Source of the DNA: Thermoanaerobaculia bacterium
Lineage (GTDB): Bacteria; Acidobacteriota; Thermoanaerobaculia; Multivoradales; UBA5704
Direction: 5' to 3'
Length of the DNA stretch: 64,000 nt
NCBI GenBank assembly: GCA_035536935.1
Contig: DATLNC010000183.1
Span: 188-64,187, forward strand
The notes below the pieces were generated by a model. It saw only the letters and a list, made by a program, of their open reading frames with translations. It did no database searches and was not told where the DNA came from. This document shows positions 5,693-63,414 of this stretch, one piece after another. A program made the position numbers and the translations under genes. Each line of letters opens with the position of its first letter. Positions within the stretch are counted from its first letter, which is position 1.

Positions 5693-5700
5693 GACCGTCG

Positions 5701-5925
5701 GAACTGACTTCCGGGCGGTGGGAAGTCAGTTCCGGACGATGGGAAGTGACTTCCGGACAGTCGCAAGTGAGCTCCGGAGAGGAGGAAGTGACATCCGGAC
5801 GGTTGGAAGTGAGCTCCGGGCCTTGGGAAGTGAGCTCCGGAGGATGGGATCTCACTTCCGGGTGGTGGGAAGTGACTTCCGAGCGGCGGGGAAGTGACTT
5901 CAGGATGCCCGGAAGTCAGATGCGC
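5701..5925. repeat. Family-A phased palindrome array, copy 1 (11 units of 21 nt)
   Basis: Units start at 5701, 5722, 5743, 5764, 5785, 5806, 5827, 5848, 5869, 5891 and 5912. Core GAAGTGACTTCCGG plus a 7-nt linker RNNNTGG. Confidence 0.95.
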
Positions 5926-10318: not shown

Positions 10319-10418
10319 GAAAAGGACCCAAAGGACACCAAGGACCGCAAGGACATCAAGGACGGGCTTCCGGGTCCTTGCGGTCCTTGATGTCCTTGCG
10401 GTCCTTTATGTCCTTGAT
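10319..10418. repeat. Mirror-image block of 9-nt iterons (5x NNNAAGGAC, centre, 5x GTCCTTNNN)
   Basis: 18-bp perfect inverted repeat 10346-10363 / 10383-10400. Located in the tldD / carboxyltransferase divergent intergenic region. Confidence 0.9.
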
Positions 10419-10443: not shown

Positions 10444-11997
10444 ATGGCCCCAACCCAGGCGATCGAGGAGCTCCGGAACCGGCTCGCCGCGGCCGAGCTC
10501 GGCGGCGGGGAAGACCGCATCCGCAAGCAGCACGAGGCGGGCAAGCTCACGGCGCGCGAGCGCGTCGAGCTGCTCCTCGACGCCGGCTCGTTCGTCGAGG
10601 TCGATGCCCTGGTCACCCACCGCTGCACCGACTTCGGCATGCAGAAGCAGAAGGTCCCCGGCGACGGGGTCATCTGCGGCTATGGCACGGTCGAGGGCCG
10701 GCTGGTCTACCTCTTCGCCCAGGACTTCACCGTCTTCGGCGGCTCGCTCTCCGAGACCAACGCCCAGAAGATCTGCAAGATCATGGACCTGGCGGTCGAG
10801 AACGGCGCGCCGGTCATCGGGCTCAACGACTCGGGCGGCGCCCGCATCCAGGAGGGGGTCGCCTCCCTCGGCGGCTATGCCGACATCTTCCTGCGCAACA
10901 CCCTGTCCTCAGGGGTGGTGCCGCAGATCAGCGCGATCATGGGACCCTGCGCGGGCGGCGCGGTCTACTCGCCGGCGATCACCGACTTCATCTTCATGGT
11001 CGAGGGGACGAGCTACATGTTCGTCACCGGCCCCGAAGTCATCAAGACCGTGACCCATGAAGAGGTCACGATGGAAGACCTGGGCGGCGCCAGCGCGCAC
11101 GCGGTGAAGAGCGGCGTCTGCCATTTCACCCGCCCCAACGACGCCGCCTGCCTCGCCGCCATCCGGGAGCTGCTCTCCTACCTGCCGGGCAACAACCTGG
11201 ACGAGCCGCCGCCGGGGCACAGCGAGGACGATCCGAACCGCGAGTCCGAGCTCCTGGACACCCTGGTCCCCGAAGATCCGAACAAGCCCTACGACATCAA
11301 GCCGCTCATCGCGGCGGTGGTCGACGACGGCAAGTTCCTGGAAGTCCACGCGCAGTACGCCAAGAACATCGTGGTCGGGTTCGCGCGCATCGACAACCGC
11401 TCGGTGGGGATCGTGGCCAACCAGCCGGCCTGGCTGGCCGGGGTGCTGGACATCGACGCGTCGCTCAAGGGCGCGCGGTTCGTGCGTTTCTGCGATGCTT
11501 TCAACATCCCCCTGGTTACCTTCGAGGACGTGCCCGGCTTCATGCCGGGGACGCAGCAGGAGTTCGGCGGCATCATCAAGCATGGGGCGAAGCTCCTGTA
11601 TGCCTTCGCCGAGGCTACCGTGCCGAAAGTCACGGTGATCACGCGCAAGGCGTACGGCGGCGCTTATACCGTCATGTCGAGCAAGCACCTGCGGACCGAC
11701 GTCAACTTCGCCTACCCGACGGCGGAGATCGCGGTGATGGGGCCGGAAGGCGCGGTCAACATCCTCTACCGCAGGGAGCTGGAGAAGGCGGGAGAGGACG
11801 CGCCGCGGGTGCGCGCCGAGAAGGTGGCGGAGTACCGCGCCAAGTTCTCGAACCCGTACATCGCGGCCGAGCGCGGCTTCGTGGATGCCGTGCTGGAGCC
11901 GCGCCGGACCCGGCCCGAGATCGTGCGCGCCCTGCGGCAGCTCCGCAGCAAGCGGGCGGCCGTGCCGCCGAAGAAGCATGGGAACATACCTTTGTAG
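10444..11997 (+). CDS. pccB: Acyl-CoA (propionyl/methylmalonyl-CoA) carboxyltransferase beta subunit
   Basis: Full-length match to the carboxyl-transferase family: [42 protein letters not shown]. Confidence 0.9.
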
Positions 11998-22635: not shown

Positions 22636-23940
22636 ATGAAAAAGCTCAAATTGTTGTTGTTGGTGGCGCTGGTGGGCCTATGGCCCATGCTGGCGTTGGC
22701 AGGAGAGGAGGCAAACGGTCCGACGGCGACAGGCGAGACGGGGCTCTTCACCCTGCTCAGCGGTGAAACCCTGCCTCAAGGCGGGTGGTCTTTCGGTCTG
22801 TATTACAACAACTGGGACCGCCTGATCGACTTCGACGACGATTTCTTCGGCGAGGACATCGACGATGACGGCGCAGAGCCCAGCGTCGACTGGAACCGGA
22901 TCAGCGCCAGCCTGGGCTACGGCATCACGGACCGCTGGGAGCTCAGCCTCATGGTTCCGTACGATGACCTCGAGGTCGACGACGACGACCTGTTCTTCGA
23001 CAATGACGATCTGGATGCCAGCGGCATCGGCAACGCCCGTCTCGGCACTAAGTTCCGGCTGATCGGCAACCGCGGCGAGGAAGGGACGAAGCTGGCCCTG
23101 AACCTCTTCGCCGAGCTCCCCACGGGCGATGACGACGTGGCGTCCGACGACGTCGGGTTCGGCGCCGGCCTCGGCTGGAGCCGCGCGAACTGGGTCTTCG
23201 ACATCGGCTACCGGGCTCCGGGCGACGATGACGAGGTGGACATTTCCGATGAGCTCCACGCGGGCATCGGCTATGCCGCGGGGATCAGCGACCGCTTCGA
23301 CTGGATCACCGAGGTGGTCGGCACCTTCTACGGCAACGGCGACATCGGTTACGAAGATGCCGTCGACCTCACCACCGGCGGCCGGCTCTGGCTCGGCGAC
23401 GGCAACTGGGCATTCAACTTCGCGCTGCGCACCGACTTGATGCAGCTCAGCGACATCGACGAGCACTGCCCGATCGGCGGCCTCCTCGGCCTGTCGCTCT
23501 TCCCCCGGATGTTCCAGGAGGAAGAGGTCATTCCGCCGCCGCCGCCACCTCCGCCGCCTCCGGCTGATGTGCCGCCGCCGCCGCCCCCGGCTCCGCCGCC
23601 ACCCCCGCCGCCTCCGCCGCCAGCTCCGCCGGCGCCTGAGCGGATGGAAGTGACGTGCGACTTCACTTCGGGCAGCGCCCGGACGAGCAACATCTGCAAG
23701 GCCCGCCTCGACGAGGTGGCTCTGCGGATGAAGCAGGAGTCCGACGCGACGGCTCAGGTCATCGGCTATGCCGACGGCACGTCCGGCTCGCAGTCCGCCA
23801 ACCAGCGGGTTGCCGAGCAGCGCGCCGAGGCGGTGAAGAACTACCTGGTGACGCGCCACGGGATCGACCCGAGCCGCATCACCACGGAAGGCCAGGTCAC
23901 CGACAGACTGTCGGCCGTGGTCATCCTCACCATCCCCTGA
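22636..23940 (+). CDS. OmpA-family outer-membrane protein with a poly-proline linker
   Basis: Signal peptide, Asp-rich beta-barrel half, a Pro tract of about 35 residues. OmpA-like C-terminus: ARLDEVALRMK...VIGYADGTSGS..NQRVAEQRAEAVKNYLV. Confidence 0.85.
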   Translation: MKKLKLLLLVALVGLWPMLALAGEEANGPTATGETGLFTLLSGETLPQGGWSFGLYYNNWDRLIDFDDDFFGEDIDDDGAEPSVDWNRISASLGYGITDRWELSLMVPYDDLEVDDDDLFFDNDDLDASGIGNARLGTKFRLIGNRGEEGTKLALNLFAELPTGDDDVASDDVGFGAGLGWSRANWVFDIGYRAPGDDDEVDISDELHAGIGYAAGISDRFDWITEVVGTFYGNGDIGYEDAVDLTTGGRLWLGDGNWAFNFALRTDLMQLSDIDEHCPIGGLLGLSLFPRMFQEEEVIPPPPPPPPPPADVPPPPPPAPPPPPPPPPPAPPAPERMEVTCDFTSGSARTSNICKARLDEVALRMKQESDATAQVIGYADGTSGSQSANQRVAEQRAEAVKNYLVTRHGIDPSRITTEGQVTDRLSAVVILTIP

Positions 23941-28396: not shown

Positions 28397-28621
28397 GGGC
28401 AAGTCACTTCCCCACGGCCGGGAAGTCATTTCCCACAGCTCGGAAGTCACTTCCCCAGGCTGGGAAGTCATTTCCCGCAGTCCGGAAGTCACTTCCCACC
28501 CTCCGGCAGTCCTTCCGACCGTCCCGCAAGTCACTTCCCATGACCCGGAAGTCACTTCCGACCACCCGGAAGTCATTTCCCAACGCCCGGATCTCAGTTC
28601 AGAACGCCCGGAAGCTGTCTC
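28397..28621. repeat. Family-A phased palindrome array, copy 2 (11 units, inverted orientation)
   Basis: CCGGAAGTCACTTC cores start at 28397, 28419, 28440, 28461, 28482, 28503, 28524, 28545, 28566, 28587 and 28608. Confidence 0.95.
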
Positions 28622-28652
28622 CGAATAGTACTCCGGTACAATCCCTGCCCGC

Positions 28653-47800: not shown

Positions 47801-48170
47801 GGGCCGATTTGAGGGGCTTAGACTCGATCCAAGAAGCCTAGACCGGGTTCAAGGAGCTTGGATCCGTCCGAAGAAGCTCCGGGCCGATTTAAGCGGCTTG
47901 AATCGGATCTAAGAGGCTTAGAGCCCGATTCAAGCGGCTCCGACCGGATTTAAGAAGCTTAAATCGGATCTAAGAGGCTTGTGTCCGTCCCAAGAGGCTC
48001 AGATCCGATCTAAGAAGCTTCGAGCCGGATTCAAGGAGCTTAGATCCCATCCAAGAAGCTCAGACCGGAATTAAGAGGCTTGGATCCGATCTGAGAAGCT
48101 TCGAGCCGATCCACGGATTTTGGGACGGTTTCAAGGAACGTGGGGCCGGTCCAAGCGGCTTACAGCGCCT
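47801..48170. repeat. Family-B phased array (about 18 units of 20 nt, AAGAAGCTT + RGATCNGATCY)
   Basis: AAG unit starts at 47831, 47851, 47871, 47891, 47911, 47932, 47952, 47972, 47992, 48012, 48033, 48053, 48073 and 48093, continuing to about 48153. Confidence 0.93.
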
Positions 48171-60562: not shown

Positions 60563-61366
60563 ATGACCACGAAGAAGGACGGCGAAGGCCAGGGCAGCTA
60601 CGTCTTCCGTGTCCGCGAGGACACCCGGCGCTACGTCCAGGACCTGCTCAACGAGAACGACCGGCTGCGCCGGCTGGTGGCGGGGCTGGAGAGCGACAAG
60701 GGCCGTCTCCTGGGCGAGAAGATGTCGCTCCAGGAGAAGGTCCTGGCCCTGCGCGAGGAGCTCGACCGGGTCTCCCACGAGCAGGCCGACCTTCGCCGCC
60801 AGCTCGCCGACGTGGAGGCCTCCAACCAGAAGTACTCGCACCAGTACATCGAGGTGGAGAGCCAGAACAACAACCTGGCGAACCTCTACGTCGCGAGCTA
60901 CCAGCTCCACAGCACGCTCGACCGGGCCGAGGTGGTCTCCGCGATCAAGGAGATCGTCATCAACCTGATCGGCTCCGAGGAGCTGGCGATCTACGAGATG
61001 AGCCCGGACGGCACGGCGCTGCGGCTGGCAGGCTGGTTCGGCATCGACCCGGCCATCTACGGCACCGTGACGGTCGGCTCGGGGATCATCGGGAAGACGG
61101 TCGCGACCGGCGAGATCTGGCTCCCCGGCAAGGGCATGGACCTCCAGCCCGCGCCGCGGGAGTCGAACCTCTCGGTCTGCATCCCGCTGAAGCTGGAGGA
61201 AAGGGTGATCGGAGCGCTCGCCGTCTTCCGCCTGCTCCCCCAGAAGACCGCCTTCGAGGCGATCGACTACGAGCTCTTCAACCTGCTGGCCACCCACGCC
61301 GCCACGGCCCTGTATCTTTCCCGGCTCCACGCCGAGAGCCAGGCAGCAGTGAAGTCAGTTCCCTGA
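60563..61366 (+). CDS. Coiled-coil plus GAF-domain protein
   Basis: GGAGG RBS. Coiled coil of about 100 aa, then a GAF-like region LDRAEVVSAIKEIVINLIG...GIIGKTVATGE...VIGALAVFRL. Confidence 0.8.
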   Translation: MTTKKDGEGQGSYVFRVREDTRRYVQDLLNENDRLRRLVAGLESDKGRLLGEKMSLQEKVLALREELDRVSHEQADLRRQLADVEASNQKYSHQYIEVESQNNNLANLYVASYQLHSTLDRAEVVSAIKEIVINLIGSEELAIYEMSPDGTALRLAGWFGIDPAIYGTVTVGSGIIGKTVATGEIWLPGKGMDLQPAPRESNLSVCIPLKLEERVIGALAVFRLLPQKTAFEAIDYELFNLLATHAATALYLSRLHAESQAAVKSVP

Positions 61367-61560
61367 CGTCTGACATGACTTCCGGGGGCTCGGATCTCAG
61401 TTCCGGGCCGCCGGAAGTGAGTTCCGGGGGGCGGGAAGTGACTTCCGGACAGGGGGAAGTCATTTCCGGACGTTGGGAAGTGAGTTCCGGGCCTTGAGAA
61501 GTGAGTTCCGGACGGTGGGAAGTGAGCTCAGATCGCTCGGAAGTGACTTCCGAGCCGTAC
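61351..61560. repeat. Family-A phased palindrome array, copy 3 (10 units, exact 21-nt phase)
   Basis: Units start at 61351, 61372, 61393, 61414, 61435, 61456, 61477, 61498, 61519 and 61540. Confidence 0.95.
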
Positions 61561-61561
61561 C

Positions 61562-62257
61562 TCAGTGGCAATACCGGGTCAGATCCTTGCGGTTGAGCAC
61601 CCGGATCCGGTGGTCCGGCTGCACGGCGATGAGTCCGCGCTGCTTCAATTCCACGACAACCTGGTTCACCCGCTCGCGGGAGGCTCCCACGATCTCGCCG
61701 AGGTCGCTCTGGGTGAGGCGCAGCGGGATCGTCACCTGGCCTCCCGCCTCGCGGCTGCCGTAACGGTCGGCCAGGGCGAGGATCTGGCGGGCGACCCGGC
61801 CGGCCACGTCCAGCGTGCAGAGCGCCTGGATCTGCTCGTTCGCGAAGCGCAGGCGGATCGAGAGCAGCCGCACCAGGTTGTTGGCGAGCGGCGTCATGTT
61901 GCGCAGGCAGCTCTGGAAGGTGCTGCGGTCCATCCAGAGAAGCCGGGACTTCTCCGTGGTCACCACGTTGGCGGAGCGGCCCGAGCTGTCGATCAGGCTC
62001 ATCTCGCCCACCGTGTCCCCGCGGCCGAGGAAGGCGAGGATGACCTCGCGGCCGTCCTCGTGGCTGACGTAGATCTTCACCGTCCCCTCGAGGATGACGT
62101 AGACCACCTCCCCGGGCTGCTCGACCGTGATGAAGTTCGTGCCGGCCGGGACGGAAGAGGAGCGCAGGAGCCCGTTCAGGTGGGCGAGGTCCTCGGCGGA
62201 CAACCCCTGGAAGAGCTCCAGCTCCCCCAGGGCACGGGGATCTTCGATGGCGGGCAT
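61562..62257 (-). CDS. Crp/Fnr-family transcriptional regulator
   Basis: cNMP-binding LFQGLSAEDLAHL...GDTVGEMSLID. C-terminal HTH TQSDLGEIVGASRERVNQVVVELKQRG. Start at ATG 62255-62257. Confidence 0.9.
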   Translation of the reverse strand: MPAIEDPRALGELELFQGLSAEDLAHLNGLLRSSSVPAGTNFITVEQPGEVVYVILEGTVKIYVSHEDGREVILAFLGRGDTVGEMSLIDSSGRSANVVTTEKSRLLWMDRSTFQSCLRNMTPLANNLVRLLSIRLRFANEQIQALCTLDVAGRVARQILALADRYGSREAGGQVTIPLRLTQSDLGEIVGASRERVNQVVVELKQRGLIAVQPDHRIRVLNRKDLTRYCH

Positions 62258-62268
62258 TGCGGGGGATT

Positions 62269-63414
62269 CTAACGCCCCAGGAGCCCGGCCAGTACCTCCA
62301 CCCCGCGCCCGACCACGTCCGGAGGCGCGGCCGTGAAGCAGACCCGGAGGTGGGTCGGATAGGGTCCGAAGCTCTGGCCGGGCGCCGCGAACAGCCCGCG
62401 CTCCACGCAGTCCTCCAGCATCCCCGGCAGCCCGCGCCCGTCCAGATGGTCCGCCACGTCCATGAACAGGAAGGTGCTCCCCTGCGGCGGCTCCAGGCCC
62501 AGGCGCGCGGCCGCCCGGTCTCCGGTCTCCTTGTACAGCCGGCGGGCGTTCTCGATCCATCTGTCTCCGAGCTCGCTCATGGCCCGCAGGGCCGCGATCT
62601 GGGAGGCAGTCGGCGTGCTATAGAAGCTGTGCAAGCCGATCTTCCGCAGCTCGTCGACCGCCTTGGCCGGACCCACGATGTAGCCGCAACGGTTGCCGGC
62701 CATGCCGTAGGCCTTGGAAAAAGAGTGGGTGGAGAAGGTGCGCTCCGGCGCCAGCGGGCGGGTGTAGGTGTGCTCCCCCTCGAAGACGTAGTCCTCGTAG
62801 ACTTCGTCGGCGATGAGCCAGAGGTCCTCGCTCTGGGCCCAGGCCACCAGGGCCTCGATCCAGGAGCGCGGGATGGTCCGGCCCGCGGGGTTGTTCGGCG
62901 TGCTCAGATAGAGGGCCACAGTGCGGGCGGTCTTCTTGGCCCTCACCGCCTCGACCGCCGTCTCCGGGGAATCGACCGCGCCGAGGAAGGGGACGTCGAC
63001 CGGCACCCCGTGGAAGGAGCGGACGATGCCGGTGATCAGCGGCCAGTGGGGGGCAAGGATGAGGACCTCGTCTCCTGGGGCCACGATCGCGCCGGCCACG
63101 GCGCCGAGGCCGCCGGTGGCCCCGGCCGCGACCAGCACGTTTTCCCGGCTGGTGGGGACGCCGGTGCGCTCGCGCGCCCGCCCGGCGATGGCGTCGAGGA
63201 GGGCGGGCATGCCCTGGGGCGCGGCGTAGCGGTGCATCCCGGGGTGGTCCGCGACCCGGATGTCCTCCATGCGGCAGCCCTCGGCGGGCTCCATCCAGGT
63301 GTCGCCGACGTGGAGCGGATAGACCTCGCCCTGGAAGGTGGCGAGGCGGTGGGCGAGCGCCGAGTAGACGTTGCCGGCGATGTCCTGGACCGACGGCGAG
63401 AAGCGTGGCGGCAT
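62269..63414 (-). CDS. Class I/II PLP-dependent aminotransferase
   Basis: NPAGRT, SFSKAYGMAGNRCGY (PLP lysine), full-length fold-type I pattern. Confidence 0.88.
   Translation of the reverse strand: MPPRFSPSVQDIAGNVYSALAHRLATFQGEVYPLHVGDTWMEPAEGCRMEDIRVADHPGMHRYAAPQGMPALLDAIAGRARERTGVPTSRENVLVAAGATGGLGAVAGAIVAPGDEVLILAPHWPLITGIVRSFHGVPVDVPFLGAVDSPETAVEAVRAKKTARTVALYLSTPNNPAGRTIPRSWIEALVAWAQSEDLWLIADEVYEDYVFEGEHTYTRPLAPERTFSTHSFSKAYGMAGNRCGYIVGPAKAVDELRKIGLHSFYSTPTASQIAALRAMSELGDRWIENARRLYKETGDRAAARLGLEPPQGSTFLFMDVADHLDGRGLPGMLEDCVERGLFAAPGQSFGPYPTHLRVCFTAAPPDVVGRGVEVLAGLLGR

Follow-up and report, generated by a model that had tools for sequence, protein, structure and literature searches.

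The DNA analysed here, referred to as the window, is a stretch of 64,000 nucleotides from a Thermoanaerobaculia bacterium, an acidobacterium of soil, and near one end of it, between the convergent genes for a GAF-domain protein and a Crp/Fnr-family regulator, lies an array of short repeats at 61351-61560 (W3, copy 3 of a repeat termed family A). We found that W3 is a genuine, phase-perfect minisatellite of 21-bp palindrome-bearing units, belonging to a dispersed repeat family of a Thermoanaerobaculia lineage, and that it is a secondary insertion of ~193 bp into a former 2-nt gap between the convergent GAF and Crp stop codons. The C-terminus and stop codon of the GAF protein are ancestral and not derived from the array. 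This part of the account (a real array, inserted secondarily beside an ancestral C-terminus) is held with high confidence. A fuller reading, in which W3 is a palindromic minisatellite akin to repetitive extragenic palindromes (REPs) and bacterial interspersed mosaic elements (BIMEs), seeded by microhomology at a permissive convergent junction, has as a whole package a probability of roughly 0.55; within it, the identity and history of the array are far more secure than the proposed seeding or function.

Laid out from position 61351, W3 consists of ten 21-nt units in register, 210 nt in total, of which the first reads GAAGTCAGTTCCCTGACGTCT, the next GACATGACTTCCGGGGGCTCG and the last GAAGTGACTTCCGAGCCGTAC. 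A position weight matrix (PWM) scan for the 12-nt core recovered ten cores with 9/9 spacings equal to 21 nt, in agreement with the original prediction of ten units without a phase slip, and Tandem Repeats Finder (TRF) reported a period of 21 with matches of 76% and no indels across 61399-61552. Four units (1-3 and 9) are degenerate. Allowing up to two mismatches, the pattern GGAAGTSASTTCCGG was matched 33 times in the window against 0.79 expected, a count reached in 0 of 100 shuffles, and all 33 matches are confined to three arrays (5700-5925, 28401-28625 and 61351-61560). A logo built from 27 units gave the family-A consensus G-GAAGTSASTTCC-GGRCNNTGG, that is, the core GGAAGT-N-ACTTCC with a G-rich spacer; core positions A2, T5, A7 and T10 are unvarying in 27/27 units, and spacer positions carry only 0.1-0.4 bit. 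Family-A arrays have a GC skew of +0.23 to +0.31 on the strand reading GAAGT...TTCC (+0.23 for the plus strand of W3). A TTCCGAGC unit near the 3' end also occurs in the arrays W1 and W2 of the window and in L044 and L045, and unit 10 has an extended palindrome, GCTCGGAAGT-G-ACTTCCGAGC (61535..61555, a strandless inverted repeat), directly 3' of the Crp stop on the minus strand.

The GAF-domain gene (60563..61366, plus strand) encodes 267 aa with a coiled-coil N-terminus and Pfam matches to GAF_2/GAF_3/GAF; its open reading frame (ORF) ends GTG AAG TCA GTT CCC TGA, with the stop at 61364-61366 inside unit 1. The Crp/Fnr-family regulator gene (61562..62257, minus strand) is convergent to it and encodes 231 aa with Pfam cNMP_binding and HTH_Crp_2 domains; its stop at 61562-61564 (TCA on the plus strand) lies 1 nt past the end of unit 10 at 61560. 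ORF coordinates thus confirmed both stop positions, which had been placed within unit 1 and 1 nt beyond unit 10. A 332-aa Crp ORF (61562-62560) is over-extended: orthologues have 231 aa, matching a start ATG at 62257, 11 nt downstream of an aminotransferase stop.

The GAF locus was compared with seven related genomes, with the more distant relatives L050 and L052 serving as outgroups. L002 and L003, whose GAF proteins are 89% identical to that of the window, have no array and their convergent stop codons are 2 nt apart; the junction reads ...GGGGTGAAGTCGCCTTCCTGACG|TCAGCGGCAG..., and the GAF end is still ...GTGAAGTCGCCTTCCTGACG. The BLAST alignment between the window and L002 stops at 61370 and restarts at 61559, with edges ACGTC and ACCTC. 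The convergent junctions of the outgroups are likewise tight, with a 7-nt gap in L050 and an 18-nt overlap in L052. The tract missing from the empty site of L002/L003 comprises units 2-10 (61369..61561, plus strand; 193 nt, ~9.2 units), and comparison of the Crp tail with that of L002 indicates that the C-terminus of the regulator was not affected by W3. The 2-nt gap and the tight outgroup junctions bear out the proposal that the array occupies the entire intergenic space and arrived after both genes were in place.

It had further been proposed that the array supplies the GAF stop codon and has remodelled the GAF C-terminus, and here the comparison gave the opposite result. The DNA of the GAF tail, GGGGTGAAGTCGGTTCCCTGACG, is common to the window, to L002, which lacks an array, to L008, which carries a hairpin in its place, and to L006, which retains a two-unit remnant; orthologues without the array therefore keep the same tail, the very outcome that the original prediction had named as its refutation. 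Because the last six GAF codons and the stop are shared whether or not a lineage carries an array, "unit 1" is coding sequence of ancestral origin, and W3 begins with a pseudo-unit, GAAGTCAGTTCCCTGACG (61351..61368, plus strand), formed by the 3' end of the gene. Among relatives the protein ends in GVKSVP, GVKSVS, GVKSPS, GVEQTP (L050) or GVTQAS, and the length of this tail (G-V-x-x-x-P/S-stop) is unchanged down to ~74-77% identity. Unit 1 matches the family-A core at 12/12 positions in the window and, in phase, at 11/12 positions in the ancestral GAAGTCGGTTCC of array-less relatives. The window differs only by a synonymous TCG>TCA, which gives position 7 the A that is unvarying in real units. 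Homologues of the GAF protein are found in Thermoanaerobaculia/Acidobacteriota.

The remaining relatives show that the GAF 3' junction is hypervariable and collects other palindromic array families with periods of 20, 21 or 42 nt as well as toxin-antitoxin cassettes. In L008 the junction GTGAAGTCGGTTCCCTGACG is followed by an unrelated hairpin instead of an array. L006, the closest relative (93%), has the same GAF 3' sequence as L008, then two degenerate family-A units, beyond which lie an inserted gene for a 1056-aa helicase, a second A-like array and a PIN/MazE module. The junction of L001, an 8.38-Mb contig, contains a different 21-nt family (~GCCGTGGCTTCTCGTCAAGCC; 13 in-phase units) plus a Phd antitoxin; L007 has a family-B-like array of 20-nt units (~17 units, 10860-11200) in the orientation opposite to family B of the window; and in L004 a 42-nt array (6.5 units) reaches up to the Crp stop, accompanied by a cupin gene and a PIN toxin-antitoxin pair.

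PIN, MazE or Phd modules, the cupin gene and the 1056-aa helicase gene share junctions with arrays both at the GAF-Crp locus (L001, L004, L006) and 3' of a helicase gene (L048, L049), and in L049 an array lies between two divergent toxin-antitoxin operons. Array-bearing convergent junctions act as shared dumping grounds, or hot spots, for insertions. In L001 the array at 10804-11076 (GCCGYGGCTTC..., 13 units) starts inside the last GAF codons, the protein tail is ..KLAP and a TAG stop falls in unit 1; here, the end of the GAF gene, its last codons and its stop, may genuinely have been rewritten by an array.

W3 is one of three family-A arrays (~30 units) in 64 kb, none of them within a supported gene and 2/3 between convergent genes. 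W1 (copy 1, ~10-11 units; 5700..5925, plus strand) lies between a DEAD/DUF3516 helicase gene and a convergent 161-aa gene and starts 8 nt past the helicase stop. W2 (copy 2, ~10 units; 28401..28625, minus strand) is reversed in orientation and occupies a divergent intergenic region between a methyltransferase gene (minus strand) and a pgeF/YfiH-like gene (plus strand), 27 nt upstream of the pgeF-like start. W1 is old: it is retained at the orthologous site in L048 and L049 (flanks 93% identical) with its orientation and its terminal unit GGATGCCC(C)GGAAGTCAGA unchanged, while the internal cores there show partial drift to GGTAAGT and a module of the PIN toxin-antitoxin type has inserted next to the array. 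Aligned with W1, W2 and L045, W3 showed 69-76% identity at many in-phase shifts, compared with 72% for W3 shifted against itself, and no collinear donor block for W3 was found among the available arrays. The idea that the whole ~210-nt array moves as a fixed mobile unit was rejected, there being no favoured collinear register of W3 against these three arrays.

Arrays of other families occupy similar places. WB, a family-B array of ~14 units of ~20.2 nt (47825-48113; palindrome TCTAAG-ARG-CTTAGA), lies between convergent Uma2-family and UvrD genes, and a convergent-gene context was found for W1, W3 and WB in the window and for L004, L007, L015, L024, L033, L034 and L035 elsewhere. Different array families can abut each other, as at L045 520-860, where an 11-unit family-A array directly adjoins a second 21-nt family, GTCAAGCTTGACGAGGGTCTC. 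Unrelated tandem arrays with a period of 20.5, 21 or 42 and up to 23.6 copies (L030 3229-3723; L019 4087-4400; L048 6725-7112; L049 17056-17145) are found in related genomes no more than a few kb away from family-A arrays.

How might such an array have reached a 2-nt gap? According to the fuller reading, W3 would have been imported from a different family-A array, either by ectopic conversion or by template switching primed by microhomology. Its seed would be the final GAF codons, in which 11/12 positions of the 12-nt core were already matched, and in phase. We estimate from the degenerate motif that such a match would occur by chance with a probability of ~1e-5 to 1e-4 per site, and the ancestral in-phase match suggests that the array nucleated on microhomology and did not land at random. 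The spacers of W3 resemble those of other family-A arrays and not local sequence, which argues that the units were imported rather than formed in situ. Afterwards, arrays would grow, shrink and diversify by in-register slippage or unequal exchange. As to function, W3 is probably a passive or weakly useful structured spacer or barrier: the likeliest effect of the self-complementary spacer would be to give both convergent transcripts a structured 3' region, acting as a barrier, an insulator or a protector of 3' ends. It might also present a regularly phased tract of protein-binding or topology-active DNA, and the strongly conserved core positions imply a candidate trans-acting factor that reads the core, either a mobilising enzyme or a host DNA-binding protein.

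The natural comparison is with REP/BIME elements, the named set being the E. coli BIME-2, the Pseudomonas REP clusters and the short-stem tandem GTAG-1 REPs of Thauera. REPs favour the space between convergent or unidirectional ORFs, can reiterate in tandem and are gyrase targets (PMC3733652; PMC3184786), and roles as terminator, mRNA stabiliser and gyrase site have been proposed for them (PMC3733652, PMC3184786). Family A resembles them in being made of short extragenic palindromes with dispersed copies, located downstream of genes and especially between convergent ORFs, clustered or reiterated, lineage-specific in sequence and abundance, and associated with insertion hot spots. However, the definition of a REP includes a conserved unpaired GTAG or CGTC tetranucleotide tag at one end of the unit (PMC3733652), and REPs are mostly arranged head-to-head or tail-to-tail, or alternate in orientation as in BIMEs, head-to-tail being rare.

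Several results weigh against the REP-like reading, beginning with those two criteria: family-A units have no GTAG/CGTC tag in the 27-unit consensus, their arrangement is purely head-to-tail with a rigid 21-nt period, and the palindrome of 13-15 nt offers a usable stem of only 4-6 bp with weak single-unit hairpins. No REP-associated tyrosine transposase (RAYT; TnpA_REP, Y1_Tnp), the gene of which is flanked by the repeats in REP systems, or other transposase was found among ~45 annotated ORFs of the window, a scan outside which fall ~10 supported ORFs in 39-57 kb. W2 lies in a divergent and not a convergent region. The template-switch origin is drawn from one junction only, with no collinear donor block for W3, and slippage alone does not explain why a period of 20-21 or 42 nt recurs in unrelated families.

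The behaviour of the units as RNA adds to these points. The core GGAAGT-N-ACTTCC is a 13-nt palindrome, in which a realistic loop leaves the 4-6 bp pairable; REPs have imperfect palindromes with stems of 6-13 bp and loops of 2-5 nt. Folding the whole of W3 gave energies far below those of shuffles (z = -5.4 for the plus strand and -4.9 for the minus strand), which is expected because any array of self-complementary units would show it. Two of the five units folded singly gave stable hairpins (unit 4, -14.6 kcal/mol; unit 10, -14.7 kcal/mol); the other three reached only -2.5 to -6 kcal/mol, no better than shuffles. Across 133 units from 12 arrays there was no compensatory covariation at symmetric core positions, the Watson-Crick fraction being equal to the expectation under independence, and the unvarying T5 and A7 would fall in the loop. 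No intrinsic terminator with a U-tract was found in W3, the hairpins of units 4 and 10 having no T-run. A classical REP-type RNA hairpin in each unit is thus unsupported by fold energies and covariation. Together, the lack of covariation, the weak hairpins and the position of T5 and A7 favour a double-stranded DNA recognition site over an RNA hairpin, and the data leave open two options, a collective structure between units or a double-stranded DNA recognition site.

The second of these options underlies the main rival to the REP-like minisatellite, an explanation that we consider unlikely and that is kept alive by the rigid period of about two helical turns common to unrelated families. Here, W3 would be a helically phased operator array in which each 21-bp unit (two turns of B-DNA) presents a palindromic site on the same face to a dimeric, sequence-specific DNA-binding protein. 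This site could be read as GGAAGT-N-ACTTCC or, with the register changed, as ACTTCC-N8-GGAAGT. Polymerised into a nucleoprotein filament, ten such dimers would serve as a transcriptional roadblock or an insulator, as a gyrase-type site or topological barrier between the convergent genes, or as a site of the centromere-like or nucleoid-organising kind. The period is consistent with this, since 21 nt separates the cores in nearly all of ~120 core-to-core intervals, with 22 found mostly at array ends, and so are the invariant symmetric positions, with uncompensated variation elsewhere and no covariation; the weak single-unit hairpins speak against an RNA stem. Moreover, the non-coding tandem arrays in Thermoanaerobaculia loci that had not been selected by pattern (WB, L007B, L001C, L004D, L030b, L019b, L045b, two in L048 and one in L049) all have a period of 20-21 or 42, each with a short palindrome, and arrays are typically 200-350 bp long. 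Against a phased operator, at least six unrelated core sequences would demand as many cognate proteins, or else a protein that reads structure; presence/absence polymorphism at a single site among close relatives sits poorly with a fixed regulatory role; and arrays have no conserved neighbour gene in any phylum, nor does a candidate binder adjoin them. The period might also be merely inherited. Units with one extra core base (GGTAAGT) are 21 nt long in seven cases and 22 nt in five, so that compensation of the insertion by spacer length is only partial and a strict compensation was rejected.

Set against the known classes of repeat, W3 is formally a minisatellite or variable-number tandem repeat (VNTR), REP-like in habit while failing the features that define REPs, and iteron-like in geometry and not in context. 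Like minisatellites and VNTRs such as the mycobacterial interspersed repetitive units (MIRUs), it consists of intergenic tandem units of 10-100 nt whose occupancy or copy number varies between relatives and which may touch or run across a stop or start codon of a neighbouring gene: TRF finds a period of 21 with 7-10 copies, and in relatives the site is empty, otherwise filled or reduced to a two-unit remnant. MIRUs differ in having units of 40-100 bp within operons and small ORFs, whereas family-A units are 21 nt, palindromic and non-coding, and several dispersed families here share one common architecture.

Plasmid iteron and centromere arrays (12 x 43 bp in sopC of F; iterons of 17-22 bp at ~22 bp) are likewise direct tandem arrays of ~5-12 units, with a short and often palindromic motif in each unit (protein-binding in the plasmid arrays) phased at integral helical turns. 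Those arrays form a single locus beside rep or par genes, whereas family A has three copies in a 64-kb housekeeping stretch of chromosome, and a search for a plasmid or phage origin gave no BLAST similarity in 72,556 plasmids or 50,697 phage records. The dRS3 elements of Neisseria, components of the Neisseria intergenic mosaic elements (NIME), have the form ATTCCC-N8-GGGAAT, and dRS3 repeats flank RS segments of 50-150 bp. Read in its alternative register, ACTTCC-N8-GGAAGT, family A has the same 6-8-6 layout in ~20 bp and is similarly intergenic, repeated and insertion-prone; unlike dRS3 it forms contiguous 21-nt arrays. CRISPR arrays also combine regularly spaced short palindromic repeats with variable sequence in between; however, their repeats are 23-50 nt with unique spacers of similar length, while the whole family-A unit measures 21 nt, which leaves nowhere near enough room for spacers, and its 6-9 variable bases have a consensus, GGRCNNTGG; no leader and, among the scanned ORFs of the window, no cas domains were found.

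The distribution beyond the lineage was surveyed in one genome per GTDB species by a scan for two cores 21 nt apart (GAAGTNANTTCC-N9-GAAGTNANTTCC), which returned 29 stretches against ~1 expected by chance, ~24 of them true arrays of 3.5 to 18 units. On the Acidobacteriota side these came from other Thermoanaerobaculia (MAG_MBR_H125.76, four loci), an 8.38-Mb genome labelled Holophagales, Pyrinomonadaceae and Chloracidobacterium, and in other phyla from Nostoc, Leptolyngbyaceae, Verrucomicrobia, Bacteroidales, Porphyromonadaceae, Hymenobacter and several Firmicutes. Many of the junctions are convergent. In the cross-phylum arrays, conservation of the core does not consistently exceed that of the spacer, and no gene was consistently linked to arrays, the neighbours in 15 loci from several phyla being unrelated housekeeping genes. 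With so large a universe of 21-nt arrays, the cross-phylum resemblance may be coincidental, and we treat it as a lead and not as a finding. The strict unit-pair pattern of the window type was matched in 3 metagenome contigs only, and the 93%-identical 8.38-Mb relative has one pattern match compared with three in the 64-kb window, which indicates that the sub-family of the window is lineage-specific in abundance. No published description of the family-A repeat was found in literature on 21-bp tandem palindromic intergenic repeats, Thermoanaerobaculia repeats or multicopy sequences of Geobacter, nor under the core sequence itself, and the repeat is apparently undescribed.

A core of the form GAAGTnAnTTCC with a 21-nt period was seen across phyla (L012-L014, L018, L020, L028, L032-L035 and others), and L014 and L017 have 63-nt super-units that mix different palindromes in one frame. 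In viral contigs the family-A pattern occurred in 5 stretches (~2 independent) against 0, 1 and 0 for three control cores of the same architecture, counts too small to interpret. The viral contigs L038-L042, a phage group, carry GGTGAAGTGAGTTCC at alternating 21- and 33-nt spacing; this repeat has the look of an ordinary cluster of iterons or operators and probably has no relation to the chromosomal arrays.

A bolder generalisation would be that tandem arrays bearing palindromes, with periods close to two helical turns (20-21 bp, or 42), constitute an undescribed general class of bacterial chromosomal element, which we regard as improbable. Such arrays would be read as DNA by a conserved architectural or topological factor, for example a gyrase-type wrapping enzyme or a nucleoid protein, and the at least six sequence families in this Thermoanaerobaculia lineage would compete for the same convergent junctions. 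Arrays that combine the GAAGT-N-A-N-TTCC core with a 21-nt period are also present in Cyanobacteria, Verrucomicrobia, Bacteroidota, Firmicutes and other Acidobacteria.

Expression of the array, as a structured or sponge-type non-coding RNA or as a heptad-repeat peptide (e.g. the 97-aa ORF at 61278-61571 on the minus strand, with PELTSxx repeats), is very improbable. Open frames do run across the arrays and the whole-array fold is far more stable than shuffles. However, chance ORFs are expected in periodic DNA free of stops, and no Pfam match above threshold was obtained for ORFs across three arrays; a search of Rfam 15 at gathering score was empty for the whole window, as was one at E<=1 for the region around W3, a consensus scan found no promoter-like site in W3, there is no covariation, and arrays occur in either orientation relative to neighbouring genes.

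Hardly any credence remains for the view, taken from the original prediction, that the array replaced the GAF C-terminus and stop and may bind the adjacent Crp/Fnr regulator. The stop does fall within an in-phase unit 1 and the array abuts the Crp stop, and the different array overlapping the GAF stop in L001 (..KLAP, TAG) means that such remodelling may happen elsewhere. Yet the tail and its DNA are conserved in array-less orthologues, as is tail length in distant ones. The regulator fares no better: neither TGTGA-N6-TCACA nor TTGAT-N4-ATCAA was matched with up to 3 mismatches in 61330-61580 (that the unit is not a classical TGTGA-N6-TCACA site had been correctly anticipated), the other family-A arrays adjoin genes unrelated to Crp, and the orthologous Crp genes of relatives are without family A.

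An artefact of de Bruijn assembly at k = 21 can be set aside almost entirely: although 21 is a k-mer size in common use and the sequences come mostly from metagenome assemblies, the units are diverged (~72-76% identity) and not perfect copies, W1 is identical in L047, a near-identical (99.86%) contig of the same strain from an independent Joint Genome Institute (JGI) assembly, flanks align cleanly to orthologues, and 21-nt arrays also occur in the single 8.38-Mb contig (L001, L019, L049) and in named Nostoc and Hymenobacter strains.

W3 provides a clean example of repeat arrays colonising the dead space between convergent genes, and it illustrates that a stop codon lying in phase within an array may mark an ancestral look-alike (here probably the microhomology seed) and not be evidence that the gene was remodelled. 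If the recurrent period of two helical turns reflects selection and not inheritance, it would point to a DNA-level reader in large soil-bacterial genomes and would open a way to study the insulation of convergent transcription units in phyla with poorly understood terminators.

The surrounding genes of the window are housekeeping genes, including those for an acetyl-CoA carboxylase carboxyltransferase subunit, glyA, ruvC, gatB, rlmN, rpe, bamD and ftsEX. Two further repeats were noted in the window. A CCG-rich low-complexity coding repeat (periods 3, 18, 21 and 27) at 23532-23636 lies within an OmpA-family gene (22636-23940). At 10322-10418, between divergent TldD/PmbA-like and carboxyltransferase genes, a block of five 9-mers in tandem (AAGGACNNN) and, 10 nt further on, five 9-mers in inverted orientation (GTCCTTNNN) together make up a long hairpin or inverted array. 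At least its GTCCTT half is also present in L047, the contig of the same strain (TRF, 10552-10594).

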